NCBI GenBank assembly: GCA_964531275.1
Contig: CAZHDZ010000003.1
Span: 33,208 to 97,207 of the forward strand
Direction of reading: 5' to 3'
Origin: an uncultured Gammaproteobacteria bacterium
GTDB taxonomy: Bacteria; Patescibacteriota; Microgenomatia; Levybacterales; GWA1-39-11
Length of the DNA: 64,000 bases
The position numbers and the translations under genes were made by a program. Positions 39,246 to 62,023 of the stretch are shown piece by piece. Below the pieces are notes generated by a model. That model saw only the letters and a program-made list of their open reading frames with translations, ran no database searches and had not been told where the DNA came from. How positions within the stretch are numbered: the stretch's first letter is position 1; every line of letters begins with the position of its first letter.

Positions 39246-39464
39246 CTATTTAATAAAGGCCAAAATCAGTGAATAAATAGCGATAGCCTCAGCAAACGCC
39301 ATTCCCAAAAGCATGGCAGGAAGGATTTTAGTAGAAGCTTCGGGATTTCTTCCGATAGCTTCCATAGCTTTGTAACCAATGATTGCAATTGCAAGAGCTG
39401 GAAGTACACCTCCAAGCGCAATTGTTGCACCACCTGTTAATGCAAACTCCATATTAATGACCAC
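39246..39464 (-). CDS. atpE: Fo ATP synthase subunit c
   Basis: Two-helix hairpin with GRNPE loop and the carboxylate in AFAEAIAIY. About 70 aa. Confidence 0.9.
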   Translation of the reverse strand: MVINMEFALTGGATIALGGVLPALAIAIIGYKAMEAIGRNPEASTKILPAMLLGMAFAEAIAIYSLILAFIK

Positions 39465-40413
39465 CTCCTTCCGAAGATGTTGTCGCGAGTAATGACATAA
39501 ATACCATAGTTAGCATAGCAAATACTAGTGCTTGCACTAGTGCCACAATCACTTCAAGCAGTAAAAATGGGATTGGTGCTAGAAATGCTGAGTAGGCAGC
39601 AAGACCAGCTACTGTAACAAGAACTACCTCTCCTGCAAATATATTACCAAAAAGCCTAAATGAAAGTGAAAATATTTTAACACCTTCAAGGAGGAATTCA
39701 AGTAGTCCAATTGCGAGATTGATAGGATTTTTAGAAAGGAACTTTTTTGCGTAACCCACTAAGCCATTGTAGCGGAAAGCAATAATATGTGTCATAACAA
39801 CTGATATTGTGGCAAGTGCAAGTGTTAAATTGAAGTCACTAGTTGCTCCTCTTAAGATTGGAAGTAGATGTTTTGAGCTTTCTGTTGTTGCGTGTGCTGG
39901 CTCCTCATGCGCAGTATCACTTGCAGAAGTTGTTGTCGCATGATTATTAGATGATGTTGCTTCATGAGGTGCCGTTTCATGAAGATCTATCTCATGGGCT
40001 GTACTTGGTGTTTCATTACCGTTTTCAGTTGCTGCCGGTGCTGTTGTTGTCGCTTTCTCGGTAGAATGTTGTGCAGTACTCTCATGCGCAGGACCTTTTT
40101 CCCAAATGCCAATTGTTCCAAATCCCGGGAGTAGGGCGATAAAGTTTGCAATGAGAATGAAAAAGAAAAAAGATGCAAACCAGGGAAATATTGTTTTGGC
40201 TTTTGTACCCGCGATTGACTCTGTTAGATCATAAAGATAGTCTATTGCGGGCTCAAAAATAGATTGAAGGCCTGTAGGGACAATTCTAATTCTTTTATAA
40301 ACCACAAATACTAATGCCACTATAACAACATCCACAAGAAGGGTTGCGATTAAAGTATTCGTGACGGGAAATCCGCCAATTTCAGTGATAAGTTCTGGTC
40401 TTAGTGAGGCCAT
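39454..40413 (-). CDS. atpB: Fo ATP synthase subunit a, carrying an atypical His/Thr/Ala/Glu-rich insertion of about 85 aa
   Basis: The C-terminal helices carry the conserved LSFRLFGNIFAGE and LVQALVFAMLTMVF motifs. The insertion HESTAQHSTEKATTT...AHEEPAHATTESSKH lies between predicted TM2 and TM3. Confidence 0.85.
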   Translation of the reverse strand: MASLRPELITEIGGFPVTNTLIATLLVDVVIVALVFVVYKRIRIVPTGLQSIFEPAIDYLYDLTESIAGTKAKTIFPWFASFFFFILIANFIALLPGFGTIGIWEKGPAHESTAQHSTEKATTTAPAATENGNETPSTAHEIDLHETAPHEATSSNNHATTTSASDTAHEEPAHATTESSKHLLPILRGATSDFNLTLALATISVVMTHIIAFRYNGLVGYAKKFLSKNPINLAIGLLEFLLEGVKIFSLSFRLFGNIFAGEVVLVTVAGLAAYSAFLAPIPFLLLEVIVALVQALVFAMLTMVFMSLLATTSSEGGGH

Positions 40414-40478: not shown

Positions 40479-43400
40479 CTAATTTAATATTCTAACTCCA
40501 TCAACAATAATAACCGGAAGGTCTTCTTTAAAGTCTAGCTTTCCTTCGATAATGACAATAGCATCTTTTACAAGATAAATTTTTGAACGTTCAAAAATCT
40601 TAGGAAAAACAACACATTCGATACTCACTCCTAAATGGTCCTCGAGTGTTATAAAGGCCATTTCTTCATTTGAACGTTTGGTAAAAATCTTTTTAATAGT
40701 TGACACTAGTCCTCCAATTTTTACTTTCGTGCCATTTTTAACTTCAGGAAGATCTGATATTTTGTGTGTTGCAAATGTAAAAAGAGAATTAAGCTTGTGA
40801 TTTAAGGGATGATCAGACAAGAAAAAACCGAGCAATTCTCTCTCAAACATTAATTTTTCACTTTCGGTAAAGTCTTCAATTTCTTCAAGATCTGTATTTA
40901 TAGTAGGTGTAATTTCCGGAAGATCTCCGAAAAGACTAATCTGATTTAAATCCTTCTTAGAGGGTTTTTTAGTAATAGCGCTTACTGCGTTTGCTGCTGC
41001 CGAGAGGAGACCTGCTCTTTTACCAAAATCATCAAATGCTCCAGCTTTAATAAGACTTTCCATTGTTTTTTTATTTACCTTTGAGAGATCAACTCTGCTA
41101 CAAAAATCGGAAAGACTTTTGAATTCACCGTTGCCCCTGGCTTCTAAGATCGTAGAAATAGCTGCAGTGCCAACATTTTTAACAGCAGAAAGGCCAAAAC
41201 GGACTTTATTTTCTTCAATTGAAAAGTCTGCCAATGAAGCATTAACATTAGGTCCTAGCACATCAATCTTAAGTCTTTTGCATTCGGCAACTGCAATTGA
41301 TATCTTTTCATTCTTTAGTGGTCCTGTTGATCCACGAGACTCAGCAGTAAGTAGGGCAGTCATAAATTCTACTGGGTAATGAGCCTTAAGATATGCGGTT
41401 CTGAAAGCTATAGTTGCATAGCAAGAAGCATGAGCTTTATTGAATCCATAGCCAGCAAATGGAGCTATTAGTTCAAATATCTCTTCAGCCTTTTTCTGAG
41501 TAAGACCGTTCTTAACCGCGCCTTGAAGAAATATTTCTTTTTGTTTTTTCATTTCAGCCGGAATTTTTTTACCCATAGCTTTACGGAACTTATCGGCATC
41601 AAGCCATGTGTAGCCTGCTAATGCGATGGTTGTTAGGAGAACGTCATCTTGGTAGGTAAGGATTCCGTACGAATTAGTCAAAATTTCTTTTAAGCGGGGG
41701 TCAGGAAATGAAATCTTCGAAGGATCATGTTTTCGAGCAATAAAATCAGGAATATTTTGCATCGGTCCCGGACGATATAGCGCTACCATTGCCATAACAT
41801 CAAAGATAGTAGTGGGTTTTAATTCTTTTATGTACCTTCTCATTCCAGAAGACTCAAGTTGGAATATTCCAGTCGTTTCACCACTGGCAAGGAGTCTATA
41901 TGTTGGTGGGTCGTCGTATGAAAGTTTTTGGAAATCTATTTCCTGATTTTGATTTTCTTTTATAAATCGCAAAGATTCTTGGATAATAGTTAGATTTCGA
42001 AGACCCAAAAAATCCATCTTAAGAAGTCCCACGCCGTCTTCTCCAACTGTGTACATATCATATTGGGTTACTATCTTGTCACCGTTCGTTTCTTTTTGAA
42101 GCGGTACATATTCAGTAAGGTCTTTATCTGCAATAACAACTCCCGCAGCATGTACTGATGCATGGCGAGCTACGCCATTAAGCTTACTGGCAAGTGTAAG
42201 GAGTCTTTTTGTTTCCGGCTCAGTTGTGTATGCAGCTTTTAGCTCTGGACTTTGTGTTAGTGCAAGGTCAATTGTCATATGGTGGCCTTGCCAGCCTGGG
42301 GGAATCATTTTAGAAATTCTGTCAGGTTGAGCATATGGCATGCCCAATGCACGGCCTGCATCCCTTACGGAGCCCCTTGCTTCCATTGTTCCAAAAGTAA
42401 TAATTTGTGCCACTTTATCTTTTCCATATTTTTGAGTTACGTACTCGATCACTTCATCTCGTCTTGTATCAGCAAAATCAAGATCAATATCGGGAGCCGA
42501 TGGTCTTTCCGGATTTAAGAATCTTTCAAACGGGAGGTTGAAATAGAATGGATCAACGTCAGTAATCCTTAGAATATATGAGACAACAGAGCCCGCAGCA
42601 GATCCTCTTCCAGGTCCAACGCTTATTCCTCGATCTTTCGCCCAATTTACAAAATCTGCAACAGTTAAGAAGTATGTCTCGTAGCCCTTTTTTAAAATGA
42701 CATCTATCTCATAGTCAATACGTTGTCGAATTTCTTCAGTAATATTTTCGTAGCGAAATGGTAGTCGTTCTTCTATAATTTTCTTAAAATATTCAGCGGC
42801 AGTAAGGCCATTAGGAACATCATATTGCGGCATTATCCATTTACCAAGTGTCAATTCCAGGTTACACATTTCCGCAATTTTTACAGTATTTTCAATGACC
42901 TCAGGCATATCCTTAAACGCCTCATTCATTTCCTTTGCAGACTTTAAGTAAAAGTCGGGTGAGTCAAGCATTGTTAATTTTCTATTCTCATCTAAAATTG
43001 TTGTTTGGGTGCCTATGCAAAGTAAGATTTCTTGACCTTCAGCATCATCTTTCTGAATGTAGTGATTATCGTTTGTTGCAACCAATTTAACTTCAAATTC
43101 CTTTCCTAGAACTTGCAACTTTTTGTTAAGTTCTTCTTGTCCCGGAACACTTATATGTCGTTGCACTTCAAGAAAAAGATTTTCTCTTGTGTATATATCG
43201 ATTAATTTTTGAAGCCTTTTTTTTGCTAGTTCTTCCTGTCCCGCAAGTAAAGGTTCGCTGACATATCCGCTTATACAAGCAGTCAAGCATATAAGCCCCT
43301 CGCTGTGTTTTTTGAGTAATTCAAGGTCTGTTCTTGGCTTGTAATAGAAGCCTTCCAAGTGAGAAGTTGTGATTATTTTTATCAAGTTTTTATAACCAGT

Positions 43401-43688
43401 TAAGTTTTTTGCGAGAAGAATAAGGTGGTTGTAATCCTTGTCCACTCCGGCTTCTTTATCATGCAGACTTCTTTTCGCTACGTAAATTTCACATCCTATA
43501 ATTGGTTTAATTCCTTCAGCAAGGCATTTCTTATAGAACTTAATTGTCCCATACATATTTCCGTGATCTGTTATTGCAAGAGAGGTCATTCCAAGCTTTT
43601 TTGCATGTTCAACCATTGGGTCAATACGTGACAATCCGTCGAGTAATGAATATTCCGAGTGATTATGTAGATGAACAAAATCTTTCAT
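40479..43688 (-). CDS. dnaE: DNA polymerase III alpha subunit
   Basis: N-terminal PHP domain (HLHNHSEYSLLDG). Length 1069 aa. Central polymerase core motifs (GVVIADKDLTEYVPLQ) and a C-terminal OB-fold region. Confidence 0.95.
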   Translation of the reverse strand: MKDFVHLHNHSEYSLLDGLSRIDPMVEHAKKLGMTSLAITDHGNMYGTIKFYKKCLAEGIKPIIGCEIYVAKRSLHDKEAGVDKDYNHLILLAKNLTGYKNLIKIITTSHLEGFYYKPRTDLELLKKHSEGLICLTACISGYVSEPLLAGQEELAKKRLQKLIDIYTRENLFLEVQRHISVPGQEELNKKLQVLGKEFEVKLVATNDNHYIQKDDAEGQEILLCIGTQTTILDENRKLTMLDSPDFYLKSAKEMNEAFKDMPEVIENTVKIAEMCNLELTLGKWIMPQYDVPNGLTAAEYFKKIIEERLPFRYENITEEIRQRIDYEIDVILKKGYETYFLTVADFVNWAKDRGISVGPGRGSAAGSVVSYILRITDVDPFYFNLPFERFLNPERPSAPDIDLDFADTRRDEVIEYVTQKYGKDKVAQIITFGTMEARGSVRDAGRALGMPYAQPDRISKMIPPGWQGHHMTIDLALTQSPELKAAYTTEPETKRLLTLASKLNGVARHASVHAAGVVIADKDLTEYVPLQKETNGDKIVTQYDMYTVGEDGVGLLKMDFLGLRNLTIIQESLRFIKENQNQEIDFQKLSYDDPPTYRLLASGETTGIFQLESSGMRRYIKELKPTTIFDVMAMVALYRPGPMQNIPDFIARKHDPSKISFPDPRLKEILTNSYGILTYQDDVLLTTIALAGYTWLDADKFRKAMGKKIPAEMKKQKEIFLQGAVKNGLTQKKAEEIFELIAPFAGYGFNKAHASCYATIAFRTAYLKAHYPVEFMTALLTAESRGSTGPLKNEKISIAVAECKRLKIDVLGPNVNASLADFSIEENKVRFGLSAVKNVGTAAISTILEARGNGEFKSLSDFCSRVDLSKVNKKTMESLIKAGAFDDFGKRAGLLSAAANAVSAITKKPSKKDLNQISLFGDLPEITPTINTDLEEIEDFTESEKLMFERELLGFFLSDHPLNHKLNSLFTFATHKISDLPEVKNGTKVKIGGLVSTIKKIFTKRSNEEMAFITLEDHLGVSIECVVFPKIFERSKIYLVKDAIVIIEGKLDFKEDLPVIIVDGVRILN

Positions 43689-43691
43689 AAA

Positions 43692-44621
43692 TTAGGCAAC
43701 CTGTTGTAATTGTTGAAATGAGAATCGATCTTGATCGGGGACAGCAATAAAAGTCGTATCGCGTCCTGCATTTTTCGCTTCTGCAACTGCAGCACTTGCT
43801 CGGCTTAATAATTGCAAACCGTTTTCCCCTGGTTGTAATTTTGTTGCCCCAAAGCTTAAGGTAACGACTTTGGGAATTCCTTCCTCTGATATCTCATTGT
43901 CTTTTAAAGTGTCTTTTGGGTGCATTTCTTGTAATGCCTTTGCACTCATTTCTTTATAAAGGCGTGAATATCTTCCGGTAATTGATGCTATTTTTTCTTC
44001 ATCTGTTGCTTCCGGTTTTTCTTCTATTCGAACATTGTTAAGATTTATTAACTGTACAAACTCTTCCCCACCAAAACGTGAGATTAATTCGTCATTTCTT
44101 GCCAAATTGCCCATAAGTCTTAAAAGATTGTCACCACCTGTGTGATTGTAGATTGTATTTATGTATTTAAATCTGTCTAGGTCAATAAATACAGCCCATA
44201 AATTACTGTTAGGATCCTGATGTGATGTTTCTACTTGGGAATCTATAGTCTCTTCAAGCCATCTCCGATTTTTCAAACCAGTAAGCTGATCCGTATAGCC
44301 TTGAATTTCTATACCGGCTCTTCGTAATGCATCCTGTTCTGCGAATTTTGATTTACTGACAAAATCTATTCCATTTTCAAGCATTAGATCTTGAACATCC
44401 GCTAGATGTCTCCTGAATATCCCATCATAGTAGTCATCTAGTTCGGCTGGAACTGCTTCTAGTTTATCTAATTGGTCATTTTCTTCACGATCAAAAATAT
44501 TAAGTTTTCCTTTCGTAGGGCCGAACCGATCCCACCATCTGTCAACTATAATTGCTGCCTCAGGGGTTCCTGCTTCGGGTATATGGGGGGGTGTGATTTT
44601 TGCTCCTAAACCTTCAGTCAT
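43692..44621 (-). CDS. GGDEF-domain diguanylate cyclase with an N-terminal domain of unknown function of about 120 aa; no TM helices
   Basis: DQLTGLKNRRWLEE; FIDLDRFKYINTIYNHTGGDNLL; RFGGEEF (a GG[DE]EF active-site motif); SFGATKL...AVAEAKNAGRDT. Confidence 0.8.
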   Translation of the reverse strand: MTEGLGAKITPPHIPEAGTPEAAIIVDRWWDRFGPTKGKLNIFDREENDQLDKLEAVPAELDDYYDGIFRRHLADVQDLMLENGIDFVSKSKFAEQDALRRAGIEIQGYTDQLTGLKNRRWLEETIDSQVETSHQDPNSNLWAVFIDLDRFKYINTIYNHTGGDNLLRLMGNLARNDELISRFGGEEFVQLINLNNVRIEEKPEATDEEKIASITGRYSRLYKEMSAKALQEMHPKDTLKDNEISEEGIPKVVTLSFGATKLQPGENGLQLLSRASAAVAEAKNAGRDTTFIAVPDQDRFSFQQLQQVA

Positions 44622-44625
44622 TGAA

Positions 44626-46020
44626 TCATTCTAGCATCTTAAGAAGGGTTTTTCTAATCTGATCCATGTCTTTGGCTTCTGGTAATGACTTTCTGATAGC
44701 ACCTATCAGATATCCCAACACCTGAACTTTACCTGCTTTGTATTCTGTAACAATCTGTGAATTTTCACTTATAACTTTACTAATTCCTGCGGTAAGTTTG
44801 GCCTCATCAAAACTTTCTATAGTGTTTTCTTCTTTAATTGTAGTAACTAGTGCAGTGGGATCTATCTTTTCCAAATCCGGTTTTTTATTAATAACAAAAT
44901 TTGCTATTGTTTTTGCATCAACATGTAAATTCTTGCCCTCAGAAACTGCAGCTTCAAAGAAATTACAAAGAACAATATCCCTGGTTAAGATCTCAGCATT
45001 GTATTCCGAAAGACCAAATTCGTTAACAAATCGAATAACTCGAGCTTGTGGAAGTTCTGGAAGCGATTGCTTAAGTTCTTCGACTTTACTATCAGAAAAA
45101 TTAATTGGGGGAAGATCTGGCTCTGGAAAATATCTATAGTCATGAGCTTCCTCTTTTGATCTTTGGCTTACTGTTTTGTTTTTGAATTCATTCCAGCCCC
45201 GCGTTTCCTGAAGAGGAACCTCTCCTTTATCAAGAAGCTCTTTATGTCTTTTTTCTTCAAACTTAATAGCATTTTCAACAAATTTAAACGAATTGATATT
45301 TTTTACCTCGACTTTATATTTTGCTAATTCCTTTTGTCCTGGAGGTCTTAGCGAAATATTTGGTTCAAGTCTCATTTGCCCTTTGTCCATATCTGCATCG
45401 CTTACTCCCAGGAAGCGGATGATTTTTTGTAATTCCTGCAGAAATATTCTTGCCTCTTCACCGGTTCTAATGTCAGGTTCTGTGACTATCTCAACGAGAG
45501 GTACACTTGATCTGTTGAAGTCAATGAGGCTTACTTCTTTCCCGTCAACTGTTGCATGGGTAAGTTTACCTGTATCTTCTTCCATATGTACCCTTGTAAT
45601 GCCAATTCTTTTTATTGCTCCGTTAACTTTGATATCAAGATATCCCTTTTCACCAAAAGGATGTAAAAATTGTGACGTCTGAAATCCCTTAGCAAGATCG
45701 GGATAAAAATAATTTTTCCTTTCAAAATATGAGTCTTGATTCACCATGCAATTAAGTGCAAGTCCAATTTGAACACAGGACTCTATTGCTTTTTGATTGG
45801 TGTAGGGGAGGGCACCAGGAAGTCCTAGGCAAATCGGACAAGTTTTGGTATTGGGTTTATCTGACAGATTTGGAACAGGGCAGCTACAGAACATTTTTGT
45901 AGTAGTTGCAAGCTCTACGTGGATTTCCATCCCTACAACTGTTTCGTAATCGCTGACGCTCATAGCGCTGACGCTTAAAATTGGTGGTTGGTGGTTGGTG
46001 TTTGGTGATTGGGAATTCAT
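44626..46020 (-). CDS. gatB: Asp/Glu-tRNA amidotransferase subunit B
   Basis: GMEIHVEL, MEEDTGKL and the C-terminal GatB_Yqey-like tail. The start codon overlaps the gatA stop (ATGA). Confidence 0.9.
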   Translation of the reverse strand: MNSQSPNTNHQPPILSVSAMSVSDYETVVGMEIHVELATTTKMFCSCPVPNLSDKPNTKTCPICLGLPGALPYTNQKAIESCVQIGLALNCMVNQDSYFERKNYFYPDLAKGFQTSQFLHPFGEKGYLDIKVNGAIKRIGITRVHMEEDTGKLTHATVDGKEVSLIDFNRSSVPLVEIVTEPDIRTGEEARIFLQELQKIIRFLGVSDADMDKGQMRLEPNISLRPPGQKELAKYKVEVKNINSFKFVENAIKFEEKRHKELLDKGEVPLQETRGWNEFKNKTVSQRSKEEAHDYRYFPEPDLPPINFSDSKVEELKQSLPELPQARVIRFVNEFGLSEYNAEILTRDIVLCNFFEAAVSEGKNLHVDAKTIANFVINKKPDLEKIDPTALVTTIKEENTIESFDEAKLTAGISKVISENSQIVTEYKAGKVQVLGYLIGAIRKSLPEAKDMDQIRKTLLKMLE

Positions 46021-47420
46021 ATGTTTGGCAATTTCAGATACATCTTTGTTTGTTGTTCAAAGGCGTAACCCGTTTTGAAGAGTAATTCCTCAGAAAAATG
46101 TGGTCCAATAAATTGAATTCCAATTGGTAGTTCGTCTTTGCTAAATCCAGCAGGGACTGATATCCCGGGAACACCAGCAAGATTAATGGTTACTGTTAAT
46201 GCGTCTGATAGATACATAGCAAGCGGGTCATTTGCCTTCTCACCAAATTTCCATGGTGGGGTAGGAGAAACAGGAGATACTATTACGTCAACTTTTTTAT
46301 ATGCGTCCTCAAAGTCTTTAGTTATGAGAGTTCTTACCTGCATAGCCTTTTTATAATAAGCGTCATAATATCCAGAAGAGAGTGTAAAAGTTCCGAGCAT
46401 TATTCTTCTTTTTGCTTCTTTTCCAAAGTGAGATCTATCCGCCCCAAATCTTATGCCATCATATCGAGCTAGGTTGGAGCTTACTTCTGAAGGCTGAATA
46501 ATATAATAGACTGCAATTCCTTCATCCGTATGAGGAAGAGAAATTTCAAGAATCTCAGCTCCGAGATTTTGAAGAATTTTAAGACTATTTTCGAATACTT
46601 CTTTGACGTCAGGACTTAGCCCTGTACCTACATATTCTTTTGGCACTCCAATTCTCATGCCCTTTATATCTTTGCCAATACTTTTTGTATAGTCAGTACT
46701 TTTGCCTTCAGCTAGCGTAGAATCATATCCGTCCTGTCCTGCCGTTGCATTAAGAATTATTGCTGAGTCTTTTACGGTTTTTGAGAAGTGTCCAATTGAG
46801 TCGAGGGAAGAAGCCATCGAAATAACTCCATAGCGACTCACCAATCCATAAGTAGGTTTTAGGCCGACGGTATTGGTGAAGCTTGCAGGAAGTCTAATAG
46901 ACCCTCCTGTATCCGTTCCGGTTGAGAAGGGTACCATGCCAGCAGCAACTGAGGCACTTGAGCCAGAAGAAGATCCTCCAGGAACGTACTCAGTATTCCA
47001 GGGATTGAGTGTATTTCCAAAGTCACTATTTTCACCACTTGATCCATGCGCCCATGCATCGTGATTTAGTTTGCCTAATGATATTGCTCCATTCTCTTCC
47101 AGCCTTGTAATAGCAGTGGACGTGTAGGGTGGAATATAATCTTTCAGAACATTTGATGCGGCAGTTGTCCTGACACCTTTGGTCAAGAACATATCTTTTA
47201 TTCCAAAGGGCACTCCATGTAGAGGATTAATTATATCTTTCCCTTCCAGTAGTGCGGCCTTTTTTTTAGCGTTTTCTTGATCGATAGTAATAAACGCATT
47301 AAGAGATGGATTTAATGCATTAACCCTTTCAAGATATGAGTTAATTATTTCGCTTACGCTGAACTCATGCTTTTTGTATCCCTCAATAATGTCACTGATT
47401 GTTAAATCTTGGATATTCAT
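46017..47420 (-). CDS. gatA: Asp/Glu-tRNA amidotransferase subunit A (amidase)
   Basis: Amidase signature GGSSSGSSASVAAG with the catalytic Ser-cisSer-Lys context. 467 aa. Confidence 0.95.
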   Translation of the reverse strand: MNIQDLTISDIIEGYKKHEFSVSEIINSYLERVNALNPSLNAFITIDQENAKKKAALLEGKDIINPLHGVPFGIKDMFLTKGVRTTAASNVLKDYIPPYTSTAITRLEENGAISLGKLNHDAWAHGSSGENSDFGNTLNPWNTEYVPGGSSSGSSASVAAGMVPFSTGTDTGGSIRLPASFTNTVGLKPTYGLVSRYGVISMASSLDSIGHFSKTVKDSAIILNATAGQDGYDSTLAEGKSTDYTKSIGKDIKGMRIGVPKEYVGTGLSPDVKEVFENSLKILQNLGAEILEISLPHTDEGIAVYYIIQPSEVSSNLARYDGIRFGADRSHFGKEAKRRIMLGTFTLSSGYYDAYYKKAMQVRTLITKDFEDAYKKVDVIVSPVSPTPPWKFGEKANDPLAMYLSDALTVTINLAGVPGISVPAGFSKDELPIGIQFIGPHFSEELLFKTGYAFEQQTKMYLKLPNI

Positions 47421-47423
47421 GCT

Positions 47424-47714
47424 TTAACTTGTTGTATCAACTGTTTGACTAACTACAAACATTTCATTGTGTATGCTTTTCCCTCCAGAAAGTGCTTCTT
47501 CCTGTGAGAGGCTTTGGTGTGAGATTTTATCTTCTCGGGTTTTATTTACAAGACCAGTTACTTGCGCTGTGGGGTTCACTTTTGAGGTGTCAACAGAGTC
47601 TAACTTTTCTATGTAGCCAACAATGTCATTTAGTTGCTTATCAAATTCTTTTTCTTCATCCGTAGTAATAGTCAAGTTGGCGAGTTTTGCTACCTTTGCA
47701 ACATCAATTTTCAT
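47424..47714 (-). CDS. gatC: Asp/Glu-tRNA amidotransferase subunit C
   Basis: 96 aa; MKIDVAKVAKLANLTITTDEEKEF..L..I..YIEKL pattern, lying upstream of gatA. Confidence 0.8.
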   Translation of the reverse strand: MKIDVAKVAKLANLTITTDEEKEFDKQLNDIVGYIEKLDSVDTSKVNPTAQVTGLVNKTREDKISHQSLSQEEALSGGKSIHNEMFVVSQTVDTTS

Positions 47715-47871: not shown

Positions 47872-48282
47872 TTAGCGTTTTGCATCTGACCGTTTAGCTC
47901 CCGTGTAGACATTCTTTTTATAAACCAATTGTGATCCTCCGACCTTTCTGAATTTCTTTGCCATGTAGTCTTTTTCTGTTTTGTCTTTTCTTTTAAGCAC
48001 AAGTTCAAAACATTTGGGATAGCTTCTTAACTGTCTTGCGACCCAAGCAATAGTTGAAACGCCTACCTTGGAGAGATCAGCTATATCTTTAAAGGTACTT
48101 TCATTAATTAAGCTTTCTGCGATTTGAATTCTTCTGCCGATTCTAATTTTTTCATCTTCGGTAAGCAATCCATTAATTAATTCATTTACCTCAGTGCCAT
48201 CCCTAGCAGCAAGAAAAGCGTCACGAAGACGATTCATTGCGCAATATGTTTCGCTTTTTGTGAGAAAACTATATCTATACAT
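47872..48282 (-). CDS. TrpR-fold YerC/YecD-like DNA-binding protein with a basic C-terminal extension
   Basis: NELINGLLTEDEKIRIGRRIQIAESLINESTFKDIADLSKVGVSTIAWVARQLR aligns with the B. subtilis YerC pattern (NELLSLSQRFEVAKML...ISEKTGASTATISRVNRSL) recalled from memory. Confidence 0.6.
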   Translation of the reverse strand: MYRYSFLTKSETYCAMNRLRDAFLAARDGTEVNELINGLLTEDEKIRIGRRIQIAESLINESTFKDIADLSKVGVSTIAWVARQLRSYPKCFELVLKRKDKTEKDYMAKKFRKVGGSQLVYKKNVYTGAKRSDAKR

Positions 48283-48369: not shown

Positions 48370-49137
48370 TTATTTGATACCGAGTCTAGAGACAAGAACC
48401 TCTTTAGCTTTTTTGGCAAGGACATCATTGAAAGCAAGCTTTATTTTCTTATCGTATTTATTTTCAATCGCTATTTCCAGAAGCTCTATAGCTAGCTCAG
48501 GGTTAGATGGTAGGATCGGTCCATGCATGTAGGTGCCAATAGAGTTTTTATAGTGTATCCCCTCGGTTTTGTCTTCTCCATTGTTGCCATATCCATGAAT
48601 AACCTTGGCAAATGCCATTGTATTATCTTTTAAATATGTTCTGCCGCCATGGTTTTCAAATCCAACATACGTTTTATTCTTGCGGAGGACAACAATATTG
48701 CCAATAAGTCTTTCCTTCTTTGGATCACTTTCCGTTGACATATCAAAAACGCCTAATCCTGGTATTTCTTTGCCATAAGCATCCTTATAATAATTACCTA
48801 AAAATTGATAAGCTCCACAAATGTAGAGTCCGGGGATTCCATCTTCAACCATTTTTGTAAGAGTAGTGCCCTTTTTTTCAATTAAATCTCGATTTACAAT
48901 TTCCTGCTGGAGGTCCTGTGCACCTCCCATAAACAACATATCACAGGTTTTAAGAACCGTATTGTCAGTATCTTGATCAATCCTCAATATCTCTACGTTT
49001 ATATTATGATCTTCGGCTATTCGTCGCAAAACAATAATATTGCCACGGTCGCCGTACGTAGACATAAGTTCTGGATATAACCATCCAATGGTAATTTTAG
49101 GATTTAAAATATTTATCTTCGTATGTTTTGTGTTCAT
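48370..49137 (-). CDS. gatD: Lipid II isoglutaminyl synthase glutaminase subunit GatD (CobB/CobQ-like class I glutamine amidotransferase)
   Basis: GIPGLYICGAYQFLG (catalytic Cys), GFENHGGRTY and GYGNNGEDKTEGIHYKNSIGTYMHGPILPSN match S. aureus GatD motif by motif. Confidence 0.9.
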   Translation of the reverse strand: MNTKHTKINILNPKITIGWLYPELMSTYGDRGNIIVLRRIAEDHNINVEILRIDQDTDNTVLKTCDMLFMGGAQDLQQEIVNRDLIEKKGTTLTKMVEDGIPGLYICGAYQFLGNYYKDAYGKEIPGLGVFDMSTESDPKKERLIGNIVVLRKNKTYVGFENHGGRTYLKDNTMAFAKVIHGYGNNGEDKTEGIHYKNSIGTYMHGPILPSNPELAIELLEIAIENKYDKKIKLAFNDVLAKKAKEVLVSRLGIK

Positions 49138-49175
49138 ATTTTAGTTTTCGATCACTAACCGCCATTTACTGATCG

Positions 49176-50459
49176 CTAAAGTATCGATTTTCCCGAAATT
49201 AATTTTCTTATTTCAAGCATTGCTGAATATGTCGGAAGAATTGTTAACCTTTGTCCTTCAGGGGTATTATTGAAAGCGTTCTGGTATGATGCGTTAAGAT
49301 TGTCACTCACTTCATGGGTGACACCTGCAAAAAGAAGTCTATTGGCCATATCATAAGCTCTATCTCCCGATACGAATACTTTTATTTTTGTCTTTTTTAA
49401 TACTTCAAAGTCTACATCCCAAATCCATGAAATATCTCTTCCATCGGGTATCCTGTCATTAAGAAGAATTAAAAGATTCGAGCTTTTATTTTCAATAGCT
49501 ACTTTTATACTTTCATTAAATCCTGTTGGATTTTTTGATAACAAATACATTATTCGCCTATTATTTATAGAAACTTCCTCCTGCCTCCCGAAGGCAGGCC
49601 GAAGTGTTATGAGAGAATTGAGAATATCCTTTTCTTTATATTCAAATTCGTGTCTTAGAACGGTAGCTGCAGCGTTAAGGTTATACTGATTATACGTTCC
49701 TAATAATTGAGAAGGGATTTCCAAGTTTTCTGATTTAGGATTTGAGTAAGAGCAGTTTGGGCATATGTAATTTCCGAGATGAGAGTAGGAAATCGTAATG
49801 TAGTCAAGCTGGAAATTGCATTTAGGACAAGTTGTGGAATCAACAGCATGACTGAGCGAGCGATTATTCTTATATTTTGGCGGAACGGTAAAGTAGATGT
49901 GTTTGGGAGCACGCGAGGCTACATACGCTATGAGAGGGTCATCTGCATTTGCTACAACGGTTGTTGACGTGCTCAATTTTTCGAATGAATGTATCCATTT
50001 TTCTGCTGTTGTATTTACTTCCCCGTAACGGTCAAGTTGATCACGGAAAAGGTTGAGAAGAATAATTGCGTTTGGATTTGGAATTTCTTTAAGAATTACA
50101 GGAAGAGAGTTCTCATCTGTTTCAAAAATTATAACTTTTTTACTGAGTTTTCCTGAAAGATTTACGTCGGCAACAAGAGTAGAGGCTAATCCATTTATAA
50201 GATTTGCACCAGAATTATTTGTAAGTACTGAATGCCCAATTTGTTCAAGTGCGTGAGAAAGAGCCTTTGTTGTAGTGGTTTTGCCATTGGTTCCGGCAAC
50301 AAGGATAATTTTCAGATCCGGATTCTTTGATATAACTTTTCTAATGAGCTTTGGATTTATTTTTAAGGCAATGTGGCCGGGCCAGGTTGATCCAGATCCT
50401 AGATTTATTATTTTGCCTATTTTAAGAACAGTTTTACCTAACAGTAGACCATGACGCAT
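49176..50459 (-). CDS. murT: Lipid II isoglutaminyl synthase Mur-ligase-like subunit MurT
   Basis: VAGTNGKTTTTKAL, FRDQLDRYGEV, ADDP, the Cys4 ribbon CPKCNFQLDY...CPNCSY, and the C-terminal DUF1727 motif DGRDISWIWDVDFE. Confidence 0.9.
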   Translation of the reverse strand: MRHGLLLGKTVLKIGKIINLGSGSTWPGHIALKINPKLIRKVISKNPDLKIILVAGTNGKTTTTKALSHALEQIGHSVLTNNSGANLINGLASTLVADVNLSGKLSKKVIIFETDENSLPVILKEIPNPNAIILLNLFRDQLDRYGEVNTTAEKWIHSFEKLSTSTTVVANADDPLIAYVASRAPKHIYFTVPPKYKNNRSLSHAVDSTTCPKCNFQLDYITISYSHLGNYICPNCSYSNPKSENLEIPSQLLGTYNQYNLNAAATVLRHEFEYKEKDILNSLITLRPAFGRQEEVSINNRRIMYLLSKNPTGFNESIKVAIENKSSNLLILLNDRIPDGRDISWIWDVDFEVLKKTKIKVFVSGDRAYDMANRLLFAGVTHEVSDNLNASYQNAFNNTPEGQRLTILPTYSAMLEIRKLISGKSIL

Positions 50460-55316: not shown

Positions 55317-55637
55317 ATGAAGAGCCATATAGTAGAAACTCTGACTGGTCTTGGCATATGCTTATTGGGATTTGTCCTCGGATTTTTAAATCTCGTGGAT
55401 ATTACTAATGCATCACTTTTTTCCTCACTTATAGCGCTTTGTCTTATTATCGTAGGAACAATAGTTCTTTTCAAAGCAGGGAGACGAGATAGACACGCCG
55501 TAAAATTACCTCCTGTAAGTTATGACAGAAACGAAAAATCTTTGGTGGACAAGCATAATGAATTTGCGCATCACTACGCTAAGACATCTCAAATGAGAGA
55601 TAAATTAAAAGTTATTAAACACTCAGGACACGATTAA
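55317..55637 (+). CDS. Small two-TM membrane protein, paralogue 1 of a tandem pair
   Basis: Two hydrophobic helices, then KAGRRD...LVDKHNEF...RDKLKVIKHSG. It shares KAGR.D / (V/L)(D/E)KHN / RDKLK with the next ORF. Confidence 0.5.
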   Translation: MKSHIVETLTGLGICLLGFVLGFLNLVDITNASLFSSLIALCLIIVGTIVLFKAGRRDRHAVKLPPVSYDRNEKSLVDKHNEFAHHYAKTSQMRDKLKVIKHSGHD

Positions 55638-55673: not shown

Positions 55674-56024
55674 ATGAAGAAAATACTTCTTGGTAGCTTA
55701 ATTGGCCTTCTATTATTGGGAGGAGGGTTTGTTAGTGTTTATTTGGGAATGCAGGGAATTTCTGAAGGAGGTTCACCGATACTCCTAGTTGTCGGACTTA
55801 TTTCATTTTGCGGCGGTCTGGGGGTGTTATATAAGGCTGGAAGAATTGATGCATTTAAATCGAAGTTTGCCGAAACTCCAGCTGTCGCTACGCCTGAAGG
55901 TGAAAGTGTTTTGGAAAAGCACAATAAAATCATATCTGAATGGAATGAGACAAATAATAAAAGAGATAAGCTTAAGATGCTCGAAGCAGCCGGTGCTGCA
56001 GACGAAGGAAAGACATTAAGCTAG
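55674..56024 (+). CDS. Small two-TM membrane protein, paralogue 2 of a tandem pair
   Basis: Same architecture and shared motifs as 55317..55637. Confidence 0.5.
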   Translation: MKKILLGSLIGLLLLGGGFVSVYLGMQGISEGGSPILLVVGLISFCGGLGVLYKAGRIDAFKSKFAETPAVATPEGESVLEKHNKIISEWNETNNKRDKLKMLEAAGAADEGKTLS

Positions 56025-59814: not shown

Positions 59815-61119
59815 CTATTCTTCGATGTCATCCTCAGGGTCGTATGGCTGATCATTCACAGGCTTTATGAGGAAATCTTTCATGTCACGGTGACCTACAA
59901 TGACGGGATATTTGAGGTTAGATCTGTCTACAATTGAAGCTACAGTATTGATTTTCTTGCCTCCAAGCACAAATGACGCCTTAACTGTTGGTCGAAAACT
60001 CTCACCGCTTGCTGATTTTACGAAAACCTTTTCCTCAAGAGATTTTAGTCCCAAAAGTTCGGCAAATTTTTTATCAACAGATGTTCTAAAGGCTCCTGTA
60101 TCAAGTTTTGCCTTAACGGTAATTGGCTCGCCATTTCTGTAAAATGTCACTTCTTGAATGATTGTTAATATTCTTGGAGTTATACTTACCTTTTCTGAGA
60201 ACGACTCAGTAAATAAGTTCTTTGCAATCTCAACACCTCTTTCAAATGTAGGTGTATTCATGTTTTCAACCCGCTCTAGTCTCGATCTGAGGGATGCTTT
60301 ATTGGCATTCTGAATAGAAAGGCCAGGACGCGCATTTACCTCAAGCACCATTGGTCCCTCATGACCATCAAAGACTACGTCAATTCCTGCGTATCCTAGT
60401 CCGGTAGTTTCTTGGGTTTTTGAGGACAGAAGTAGAACCTCATCCCAATGAGGAATCTTTATTCCACGTGTTTTTATCTTAGTATTTGGAATTACATTTA
60501 CCTCTTGGTCGTATAGGATGGCATGGGTTGTGATTCCTGTTCTGATATCAATGCCAAATCCAATAGCTCCCTGATGTAGGTTTGCTTTCCCGTGAGACTC
60601 TTGAGTTGACAGTCTCATCATCGCCATAACCGGGATACGATTAAAAACAATAACTCGAATGTCAGGAATACCATAGCCAGTCAATTTTTTAAAGAAAGGG
60701 TGGGGGTGAAGCCTTTCTTCTATGAAAGCGTTATCGGGAAGAAATTTTAATGAATACGCGCCTTCAAGAATATCGAGGATATGGGATTCCAGCTGTTTTA
60801 TGGTATACGTTTGACCATCGGCAGTTGTTGCAATATTATCTTCCCATTTTCTGATGGGAAGTATTCCAGATCCCGCATATCCGCGAGCGGGCTTTATGAC
60901 AAATCCCCGGGCAGGAAGATTTGACCAGTCATAGCTTGTGATGGAATCACGATCATAAAAGATATTGAACATGTTGGGGGATTTAATGCCATTTTGAATA
61001 AGGACACTTTTCATCAATAACTTATCATCCGCAATTTTTTTCGCCTCTGCGGAGTTATATTTACGGATATATAGGAAATTGCGGGCATTCATGCCCAAGA
61101 TGTCTCTACTTACTGGCAT
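59815..61119 (-). CDS. Fusion: RimK-related ATP-grasp (alpha-L-glutamate-ligase-like) N-terminal domain of about 320 aa plus a C-terminal retropepsin-like aspartic protease domain (DTGA motif)
   Basis: N-terminal GMNARNFLYIRKYN...DDKLLMKSVL resembles the rimK-related-ligase family N-region. ATP-grasp central motifs are present (GSGILPI; DIRVIVFN; EVNARPG). The C-terminal VKAKLDTGAFRTSVD carries the D-T-G-A aspartyl protease signature. Confidence 0.6.
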   Translation of the reverse strand: MPVSRDILGMNARNFLYIRKYNSAEAKKIADDKLLMKSVLIQNGIKSPNMFNIFYDRDSITSYDWSNLPARGFVIKPARGYAGSGILPIRKWEDNIATTADGQTYTIKQLESHILDILEGAYSLKFLPDNAFIEERLHPHPFFKKLTGYGIPDIRVIVFNRIPVMAMMRLSTQESHGKANLHQGAIGFGIDIRTGITTHAILYDQEVNVIPNTKIKTRGIKIPHWDEVLLLSSKTQETTGLGYAGIDVVFDGHEGPMVLEVNARPGLSIQNANKASLRSRLERVENMNTPTFERGVEIAKNLFTESFSEKVSITPRILTIIQEVTFYRNGEPITVKAKLDTGAFRTSVDKKFAELLGLKSLEEKVFVKSASGESFRPTVKASFVLGGKKINTVASIVDRSNLKYPVIVGHRDMKDFLIKPVNDQPYDPEDDIEE

Positions 61120-62023
61120 GGCGCATTATTGAGGAAAACCTAAAATATTCCATTAGTCTAAGTCCGAAATACCTACCAATGATTATATTAAGAGGGATTA
61201 ATAATAGAGTGAATTCCGGGTAGAGCAGGATTGTATTTCTTAAGTAGATTGATGACAAGAGAAGGAATCCAAGTATTCCGATAGCAAAGGTCACCATTGA
61301 AATAATTATCATTTCTTGGGCACTTCTTTCTTGCTGTACCGAAATAATTTGCTCAGACAAAAGGATGAGAAGAAGAACAGGAAAAATAGATAGCTGTTTT
61401 ACAACCAAAATTCCTCCCATAGCACTGACTGTTAGAACTAAGAAAAGGAAAAAAGACACGATGAACATTGAAAATGCCATCTTAGGAAGCTGCATGATAC
61501 GTAATTTTTTAAGTAATATTCTTGCGACTGTTGAGCCAAAAATGATTGTGGCAAGCAGAATTAGTCCTGCCGTAATACCGGTAGAAAGAAGAGTTATAGA
61601 AAGCGCAACAGGTACAAGCATTCCAATACTTGGAAGGCCAACTACATGTCTGATGAACGCTATTATCGTAGCGAGCATAGGGAGTAATAGAATAAGTATT
61701 ATTGTTCTTGAAGGGACACCTGATTTTACGGATGCCTGAACCAAGAAAGCCATTATGTTTGTGACTGATAGCTGATCTGCAGGACGTTGCTTAAATAGTA
61801 GGAGAGCCTGATCGTCCTCAGGTCCTTCAGGTCGCGTGACGTCTTCTTGCTTTATTTTGGCAATCGCCTCAGCTTCTCTAGCTGATTCGGATGCGGTGGC
61901 AGAGTCGGTTGCAACAGGCTCTAATGAGTCTGGAATCGTATTAAAAAAATCCTGAGCATGTGCTCTTGAAGGTATAGCAAAAAATGTGAAACAAAGAAGG
62001 AAGGCAAGGAGAAGGTGTTTCAT
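61106..62023 (-). CDS. Signal-peptide protein with a low-complexity ectodomain of about 75 aa plus seven TM helices (7TM_transglut-like partner of the ATP-grasp/protease module)
   Basis: An N-terminal signal peptide with AHA cleavage context. Seven hydrophobic segments counted by eye. It overlaps the downstream ATP-grasp gene by 14 nt, implying an operon. Confidence 0.5.
   Translation of the reverse strand: MKHLLLAFLLCFTFFAIPSRAHAQDFFNTIPDSLEPVATDSATASESAREAEAIAKIKQEDVTRPEGPEDDQALLLFKQRPADQLSVTNIMAFLVQASVKSGVPSRTIILILLLPMLATIIAFIRHVVGLPSIGMLVPVALSITLLSTGITAGLILLATIIFGSTVARILLKKLRIMQLPKMAFSMFIVSFFLFLVLTVSAMGGILVVKQLSIFPVLLLILLSEQIISVQQERSAQEMIIISMVTFAIGILGFLLLSSIYLRNTILLYPEFTLLLIPLNIIIGRYFGLRLMEYFRFSSIMRHASK

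Follow-up and report, generated by a model that had tools for sequence, protein, structure and literature searches.

Among the described synthases of cyclic dimeric guanosine monophosphate (c-di-GMP), the diguanylate cyclases PleD, WspR and DgcZ (YdeH) carry REC, CZB or other recognised sensor domains beside the catalytic GGDEF domain. SiaD of Pseudomonas aeruginosa (PDB 7e6g) and DgcB of Caulobacter (6ttr) are short, soluble proteins of 250-310 amino acids, in which an N-terminal helical region is followed by the GGDEF domain, and are encoded in signalling operons. Loci that vary as cassettes, such as capsule and O-antigen loci, hsdS alleles and defence hot spots, have a fixed position, sharp homology breaks at their borders, diverged alleles incongruent with the flanks, and empty sites. 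The open reading frame (ORF) described here lies between gatB and dnaE (DNA polymerase III alpha) in a 64-kb stretch of contig CAZHDZ010000003.1 ("the window", meaning the whole stretch analysed) and shares features with both groups. As an enzyme it is an ordinary GGDEF cyclase. Its organisation, a lineage-restricted N-terminal module encoded in an exchangeable slot embedded in an operon, is new, and its genomic behaviour is unusual. Based upon sequence comparison, the gene probably encodes a soluble stand-alone diguanylate cyclase occupying a fixed operon slot whose occupants have been repeatedly exchanged, a reading to which we assign a probability of roughly 0.6.

The GGDEF protein

GGDEF (PF00990) was the only domain identified in the ORF product by Pfam (E=5.9e-23; 81.8 bits against a curated cut-off of 23.8). 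The generic domain model TIGR00254 was the single NCBIfam model to be passed (81.3 bits, threshold 37.4), and no equivalog model was reached. The product is acidic, and no transmembrane helix or hydrophobic segment was found in it, the maximum 19-residue Kyte-Doolittle mean being 0.49. No antisense ORF of at least 60 amino acids lies within the gene. An earlier examination of the window, made from its letters and ORFs (the sequence-only reading), had proposed a complete domain with a GGEEF active site and a DxLTGLxNRR entry motif; the model matches and the residue positions bear this out.

The catalytic residues were assigned by alignment to the GGDEF domain of PleD, numbered in agreement with R359xxD362 and G368GEEF. 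The metal-binding D327 and E370 of PleD correspond to D147 and E186, the guanine-binding N335 and D344 to N155 and D164, and the transition-state and phosphate-binding R366, K442 and R446 to R182, K283 and R287. All seven are present, including the Mg-binding Asp (D147), so that the degeneracy outside the GGEEF motif which had been allowed for was not seen. The aspartate at position 164 argues for GTP over ATP as the substrate. The motif itself (G184-G185-E186-E187-F188) is invariant within the clade of closest relatives (type A, see below). It is common to PleD, which also has an Arg at the position of the inhibitory site (I-site). The ORF product shares its fold with PleD, WspR and DgcZ, along with all the catalytic, metal-, guanine- and phosphate-binding residues.

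The structure was predicted by AlphaFold2 (AF2) with an alignment of 65 sequences, an earlier alignment of seven clade sequences having given a poor model with a predicted local distance difference test score (pLDDT) of 55. A GGDEF palm-like fold was predicted with a pLDDT above 90 over residues 110-305. The top 50 matches listed by Foldseek against the PDB consisted almost entirely of diguanylate cyclases and further proteins with a GGDEF domain (best E about 1e-13), with DgcZ, SiaD, SadC, WspR and PleD among the top matches (E of 1e-13 to 1e-9, probability 1.00). A PDB sequence search gave 47 matches, all of them GGDEF-domain proteins and most named diguanylate cyclases. The best of these was SiaD, the alignment covering query residues 89-193 and starting in the helix that precedes the domain. 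The ORF product is at most 30% identical to any solved or named enzyme. On these grounds it is probably an active, stand-alone diguanylate cyclase.

Several features of the domain differ from those of PleD, WspR and DgcZ. The I-site position reads RxxE (R175-N-D-E178) instead of the RxxD that had been looked for, and it is preceded by a deletion of four residues relative to characterised enzymes. The sequence-only reading had placed the inhibitory site downstream of GGEEF; it is found five residues upstream. R175 and E178 are kept throughout type A, and most other members of the slot family, unlike the window protein, keep the canonical RxxD. Helix alpha3 and the loops are longer, and the segment from GGEEF to the next core strand exceeds that of PleD by about 22 residues, for which reason the Pfam match is split into two stretches.

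The remaining part of the protein, residues 1-108, matched no Pfam family. The sequence-only reading had estimated it at about 120 residues and had called it unrecognised and free of transmembrane helices; the length comes to about 108, and the other two statements stand. Helices were predicted by AF2 at residues 20-33, 45-54, 59-82 and 87-108 (pLDDT 35-68). Within the clade this is the best-conserved part of the protein (EAGTPEAA, WWxRFGP, FDRE, YYxGxFRRHLxxxQDLMxxNGID), with motifs WWxRFGP at residues 29-35 and FRRHLxxVQDLM at residues 69-80. A profile of the region was compared with 1.84 billion representative proteins and gave six matches, of which five were the same GGDEF family. The sixth (P0084), a repeat protein in which a 20-residue stretch was aligned eight times, was judged spurious, and no homologue was thus found in that set outside the protein's own GGDEF family. 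The first 90 residues likewise show no similarity to SiaD or DgcB. The last helix (residues 87-108) is continuous with the GGDEF domain in the AF2 model and, because it continues into the domain as the SiaD stalk does, is probably a dimerisation stalk. The module as a whole is restricted to its lineage and may act as a novel element for sensing or docking.

Occupants of the gatB-dnaE slot and their exchange

Six close homologues of the protein (69-72% identity) were identified, each encoded on a short metagenome contig in the order gatB-ORF-dnaE; the next-best match among 5.8 billion proteins was only 31% identical. A search of species-representative genomes with the ORF protein itself gave no match. 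The junction was surveyed in 80 loci (given L numbers here) pulled from species-representative genomes by the N-terminus of dnaE. The named loci were from Candidatus Levybacteria/Levyibacteriota, together with some Gottesmanbacteria, Roizmanbacteria and Microgenomates, all lineages of the Microgenomates group of Patescibacteria (candidate phyla radiation, CPR). Many of the species-representative metagenome-assembled genomes (MAGs) are titled "uncultured Gammaproteobacteria bacterium" (third-party annotation records CAZ.../CAY..., for example L008-L015). These names are evidently wrong, since dnaE and gatB identities and synteny place the MAGs in Levybacteria/Microgenomates.

Adjacency of gatB and dnaE was general among the surveyed loci. 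A same-strand GGDEF ORF of 200-365 amino acids occupied the slot in about 37 of the 80, and nothing was present in about 23 (gap of at most 171 nucleotides). An ORF of 176-202 amino acids from an unrelated family was found in four loci, an opposite-strand methyltransferase in two and an IS200 transposase in one, while a few contained short ORFs or were unclear. Since an IS200-like transposase or S-adenosylmethionine methyltransferase can stand there on the opposite strand (L061:7231-7968 (-), L039:7284-7922 (-), L067:6860-7636 (-)), the junction tolerates insertions generally and not GGDEF genes only. The spacing was tight, with median gaps in 34 loci of +1 nucleotide between gatB and the ORF (twelve ATGA overlaps) and +2 nucleotides between the ORF and dnaE, and with gaps of -4 to +4 nucleotides in most of the loci that carry a GGDEF gene there. 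Judged from these loci, the gatB-GGDEF-dnaE arrangement is a lineage trait and not a one-off.

All 44 slot proteins that were aligned matched PF00990; the only other family encountered was the related palm family of Cas10, with two weak matches. Mean column identity was 15%, and the invariant or nearly invariant columns were D111, T114, D147, N155, G163, D164, R182, G184, G185, E187 and K283. A few members have variant active-site (A-site) motifs (GGEEL, GGEEI, AGDEF, GADEF and GADET), and four (L033, L051, L053 and L059) have Asn at the position of PleD D344. A profile built from the slot proteins retrieved canonical cyclases at about 1e-49. A separable slot subfamily was accordingly rejected, the profile collapsing onto generic GGDEF cyclases.

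The four ORFs of the unrelated family (L010:7465-7995, L011:7461-7997, L016:7390-7998 and L057:7444-7995) have the same tight spacing. They share the motif G-hh-VGG..K.P.RKDIDh, followed later by P...E and G..IEL, and in a set of 5.8 billion proteins the family accounts for only 11 clusters. Comparison with Pfam, NCBIfam, PADLOC and PDB sequences gave no match for them, and hhalign gave no similarity to GGDEF. A resemblance of the motif to a minimal nucleotidyltransferase signature is a guess from the sequence.

The closest genome to the window is L008, with amino-acid identities of 94-95% for dnaE and 84-88% for gatB. The DNA of the two is about 80% identical through gatA and gatB up to position 44613, eight nucleotides into the ORF, and the alignment resumes at 43694, in the stop codon of the ORF. 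Between these points the encoded proteins are only about 25% identical. Similarly sharp breaks at the ORF borders were found for L005/L010, L020/L023, L002/L009 and L010/L011. Judged by the flanks, the sister pairs are the window and L008 (dnaE/gatB 94/84% amino-acid identity), L005 and L010 (90/87%), and L012 and L013 (93/85%). The slot genes group in another way, into type A (window, L002 and L005; 69-72%), type B (L008, L012 and L013; 51-82%) and the unrelated family (L010 and L011; 32%). The distribution of slot types is therefore incongruent with the flanks. The L008 gene aligns at the DNA level with that of L012 over the GGDEF part, which marks it as an orthologue of type B and not as a type-A gene that has diverged rapidly.

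Over all pairs, slot identity was poorly correlated with dnaE identity (r=0.20) and bimodal. Of 18 pairs with dnaE identities of at least 85%, two had slot identities of 61-82% and 16 had 16-30%, the latter being the same as between distant genomes. Within type A the proportion of non-synonymous differences (pN) was 0.18-0.21, compared with 0.18-0.19 for gatB, in relatives with saturated synonymous sites (pS 0.82-0.83). The ratio of non-synonymous to synonymous rates (dN/dS) was about 0.03 for the L004/L005 slot gene; saturation of synonymous sites made it inestimable for most pairs. Within type A the slot gene is thus as constrained as gatB and under purifying selection, and because of this constraint replacement of whole alleles explains the pattern better than steady rapid divergence. 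No mosaic flanks marking crossovers were seen at a resolution of 150 nucleotides, the sister relationship being kept up to the slot.

The motif [WF][WFLN]xRF in the N-terminal region is common to type A, type B and L009, all from the clade of the window and otherwise at most 37% identical, and is absent from more distant loci. This sharing across types suggests a gene pool at the level of the clade within which slot alleles circulate. In a second clade of Levybacteria (L020, L021, L022, L023 and L025) the slot proteins are 16-30% identical, yet have a similar N-terminus resembling MPDGS(S/P)AP, and DNA homology between L020 and L023 extends about 30 nucleotides into the ORF. The shared N-terminus hints at crossovers just inside the 5' end, or at constraint on the first codons through coupling to gatB.

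Taken together, the empty slots, the other occupants and the GGDEF genes of about 25% identity in sister genomes indicate that the gene is an exchangeable accessory occupant of a slot inside the operon. The possibilities that it was not a real gene, or was a recent foreign insertion, were rejected on account of its conservation, of purifying selection and of its native GC content at third codon positions (GC3). The embedding in the operon, which the sequence-only reading had considered unusual, is real; all six close homologues share it, as do about 37 of the 80 loci. The further claim of that reading, that c-di-GMP signalling is hard-wired to tRNA amidation and replication, is not supported in the form in which it was put, in view of the same empty slots, other occupants and diverged sister genes. 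Nor is a second-messenger gene in itself unusual for a reduced genome, as had been supposed: diguanylate cyclases have been reported before in ultra-small CPR genomes, and their genes were 1.7-fold more frequent in MAGs of sediment-attached ultra-small prokaryotes (PMC9938205).

Literature searches turned up neither an account of a gatB-GGDEF-dnaE order nor one of diguanylate cyclases in Levybacteria, and as far as the searchable literature shows the comparative result on the slot is new. Of the sampled genomes, from a lineage in which genomes are of about 1 Mb, roughly half keep a c-di-GMP synthase gene between tRNA-amidation and replication genes. With the slot, the role of c-di-GMP in ultra-small, unculturable and probably host-attached bacteria can be approached at a defined locus. 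Its alleles form a natural swap series on near-isogenic flanks, which lends itself to tests for serotype-like diversifying selection on signalling enzymes.

Proposed function and competing explanations

The ORF follows gatB by four nucleotides and precedes dnaE by three on the same strand, exactly as the sequence-only reading had stated; the start codon is ATG in both the ORF and dnaE. The four nucleotides after gatB are the same in L002, L004, L005 and L008. Consensus scans showed no terminator-like site at either junction; promoter-like and terminator-like matches were at or below the counts in shuffled sequence, which makes these scans uninformative. The GC content (0.389) and GC3 (0.265) of the ORF match those of the neighbouring genes. 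Because of the spacing, and of the lack of a detectable promoter or terminator of its own, co-transcription with gatCAB and dnaE is most likely, and translational coupling is probable.

The following mechanism is proposed. The ORF product would condense two GTP into c-di-GMP, the helical N-terminal region bringing two GGDEF domains together through helix 87-108, which leads straight into the DxLTGL motif as the stalk or coiled coil does in SiaD, DgcB and WspR. The RxxE at the I-site position may give some feedback by the product. The ORF would be transcribed, and probably translationally coupled, with gatCAB and dnaE, and since it shares their transcript the dosage of the cyclase should follow housekeeping expression, with regulation acting on the protein. 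In Levybacteria/Microgenomates, as the comparison of loci shows, the gatB-dnaE junction is a fixed expression slot, usually occupied by a GGDEF cyclase. Repeated exchange among related genomes has given rise to many deeply diverged alleles with little in common but the catalytic residues.

Partners of such an enzyme were searched for. No PilZ, EAL, HD-GYP or T2SSE_N/MshEN domain was found by Pfam among the 45 proteins of the window, in agreement with the statement of the sequence-only reading that no PilZ or other effector was to be seen there, and the window contains no c-di-GMP riboswitch. The ORF is the single GGDEF gene of the window. In 1.13 Mb of related dnaE loci every GGDEF match sits in the slot, and no EAL or HD-GYP domain was found. 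SiaD needs the partner SiaC from its own operon, and no such partner stands beside the window ORF, which is surrounded by housekeeping genes and not by a signalling operon.

A number of these results weigh against the proposal of an exchanged, active cyclase. The I-site is RxxE instead of RxxD, and in comparison with characterised enzymes four residues are missing in front of it and the helix and loops that follow GGEEF are lengthened. Confidence in the predicted N-terminal fold was low (pLDDT 35-68), and dimerisation is therefore inferred only. Neither the window nor the 1.13 Mb of related loci contained an effector, a phosphodiesterase or a c-di-GMP riboswitch. Co-transcription is read from spacing only. 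Finally, about 23 relatives have nothing in the slot, and the function is therefore dispensable. None of the alternatives considered below is supported comparably.

The alternative that survives best is compatible with the exchanged-cyclase proposal. The slot would be dedicated to hypervariable nucleotide-signalling enzymes and driven by conflict, with the cyclase taking part in phage defence or in recognition of, and attachment to, the host of an episymbiont, and the alleles being exchanged by recombination at the gatB and dnaE flanks under diversifying or balancing selection arising from conflict or partner-specific interaction. Either the signal or its sensor domain would be what takes part in that conflict or interaction. 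The slot would accommodate GGDEF alleles by the dozen, all deeply diverged, and at least one family of small proteins unrelated to them. Such a slot would fit the bimodal slot identity uncoupled from that of the flanks, the abrupt loss of homology at both ends of the ORF in five genome pairs, the incongruence of types A, B and the unrelated 176-residue family with the flanks, and the clade-specific motif kept across types of at most 37% identity. The enrichment of CPR diguanylate cyclase genes in attached populations (PMC9938205) points the same way. However, no match to the defence models of PADLOC-DB 2.0 was obtained for the window protein or for seven other slot proteins, the adjoining genes are purely housekeeping with no effector-like partner, selection within a type is ordinary purifying selection, and neutral turnover of alleles at a dispensable locus could give the same pattern. 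As a cassette, the slot differs from capsule, hsdS and defence loci in being a single gene inside a housekeeping operon without its own promoter. Unlike the capsule and hsdS cassettes, it encodes a second-messenger synthase and not a surface or restriction determinant, and save for the IS200 element in one locus it lacks signatures of mobile elements. We consider a conflict-driven slot rather unlikely. If true, it would give CPR bacteria a variable locus of a new kind, in which for the first time a second-messenger synthase behaves as a serotype-style cassette.

It is less likely still that the domain is degenerate or repurposed, acting as a receptor for GTP or c-di-GMP or as a scaffold touching GatCAB or DnaE. 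The lack of an effector or phosphodiesterase in the window and related loci, the non-canonical I-site, the physical coupling of the gene to dnaE and gatB, and the variant A-site motifs of a few slot members would be in keeping with such a role. Nevertheless, the window protein, like most of the family, retains all its catalytic and substrate-binding residues, and the positions conserved across the family are only the catalytic ones, whereas a scaffold for DnaE or GatB should keep a conserved surface. The slot is, moreover, empty in many relatives.

A placeholder ORF, relaying ribosomes from gatB to dnaE through coupling or spacing, with the identity of the protein nearly irrelevant, would account for the very tight junctions on both sides in 34 loci, for the unrelated ORFs of 176-202 amino acids at the same place with the same spacing, and for the high sequence turnover. 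It is very improbable given that catalytic residues are kept across about 40 highly diverged occupants, that pN equals that of gatB within type A, and that gatB directly abuts dnaE in about 23 genomes.

The GGDEF fold can also make other dinucleotides, as established for Geobacter GacA, and such "Hypr" enzymes have Ser at the position of PleD D344. The least probable explanation, that the ORF product is a Hypr-type cyclase making cyclic GMP-AMP (cGAMP) or cyclic di-AMP (c-di-AMP), could draw on the Asn found there in L033, L051, L053 and L059, but the window protein and its clade keep at D164 the Asp that pairs with guanine, and not Ser.

Coordinates and other features of the window

The features of the ORF and its flanks are collected in Table 1. 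The genes gatA and gatC belong to the same tightly packed unit, upstream of gatB, and gatC is preceded by an intergenic stretch of 157 nucleotides. An ATP synthase operon follows downstream on the same strand.

Table 1. Positions, in window coordinates, of the ORF, its domains and motifs, and the adjoining genes
Feature	Position	Strand	Evidence or remark
Whole ORF, stand-alone soluble GGDEF protein, type-A slot gene	43692..44621	(-)	309 aa + stop
N-terminal region, aa 1-108, clade-restricted	44298..44621	(-)	alignment, profile search, AF2
GGDEF catalytic domain, aa 109-305	43707..44297	(-)	Pfam, AF2, Foldseek
Entry motif DQLTGLKNRR, aa 111-120	44262..44291	(-)	
A-site motif GGEEF, aa 184-188	44058..44072	(-)	
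I-site position, R175-N-D-E178	44088..44099	(-)	RxxE, not RxxD
gatB stop to ORF start junction	44622..44625	(-)	4 nt
ORF stop to dnaE start junction	43689..43691	(-)	3 nt
gatB, conserved upstream flank of slot	44626..46020	(-)	Pfam GatB_N, E=2e-111
dnaE, conserved downstream flank of slot	40479..43688	(-)	Pfam
gatA	46017-47420	(-)	
gatC	47424-47714	(-)	

Directly upstream of gatC, beyond the 157-nucleotide gap, a small Trp-repressor-like DNA-binding protein (PF01371) is encoded at 47872-48282 (-), which might regulate the gatCAB-GGDEF-dnaE unit. The gatCAB operon is also adjoined by a MurT and GatD pair (48370-50459 (-)), GatD being a CobB/CobQ-like amidotransferase; the pair is associated with iso-glutamine amidation of peptidoglycan. 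On the other side, AtpB (ATP synthase subunit a; 39454-40413 (-)) has an insertion of about 90 residues, at about residues 108-195 (HESTAQHSTEKATTTAPAATENGNETPSTAHEIDLHETAPHEATSSNNHATTTSASDTAHEEPAHATTESSKH), between transmembrane segments. The insertion is of low complexity, with a high content of His, Thr, Ala, Glu and Ser.

Two small membrane proteins are encoded in tandem at 55317-55637 (+) and 55674-56024 (+). The first gave a sub-threshold match (E=0.006, 16.6 bits against a cut-off of 27.1) to SLATT_6, an effector domain with two transmembrane helices from nucleotide-signalling conflict systems; the match is probably due to chance. The ATP-grasp protein (ATPgrasp_ST) encoded at 59815-62023 (-) carries an aspartyl-protease-like domain fused to its C-terminus. 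Its gene overlaps by 14 nucleotides that of a protein with seven transmembrane helices, which belongs to a type that as a rule is fused to an inactive transglutaminase.

About 32 kb of the window (1338-33471) are taken up by a cluster for the synthesis of glycans or cell envelope, a large one by the standards of a reduced genome. It contains several GT2 and GT4 glycosyltransferases, five membrane glycosyltransferases of the PMT_2/YfhO type, a Wzy-like ligase and a flippase, as well as sugar epimerases and dehydratases, a DegT aminotransferase, a formyltransferase and methyltransferases.

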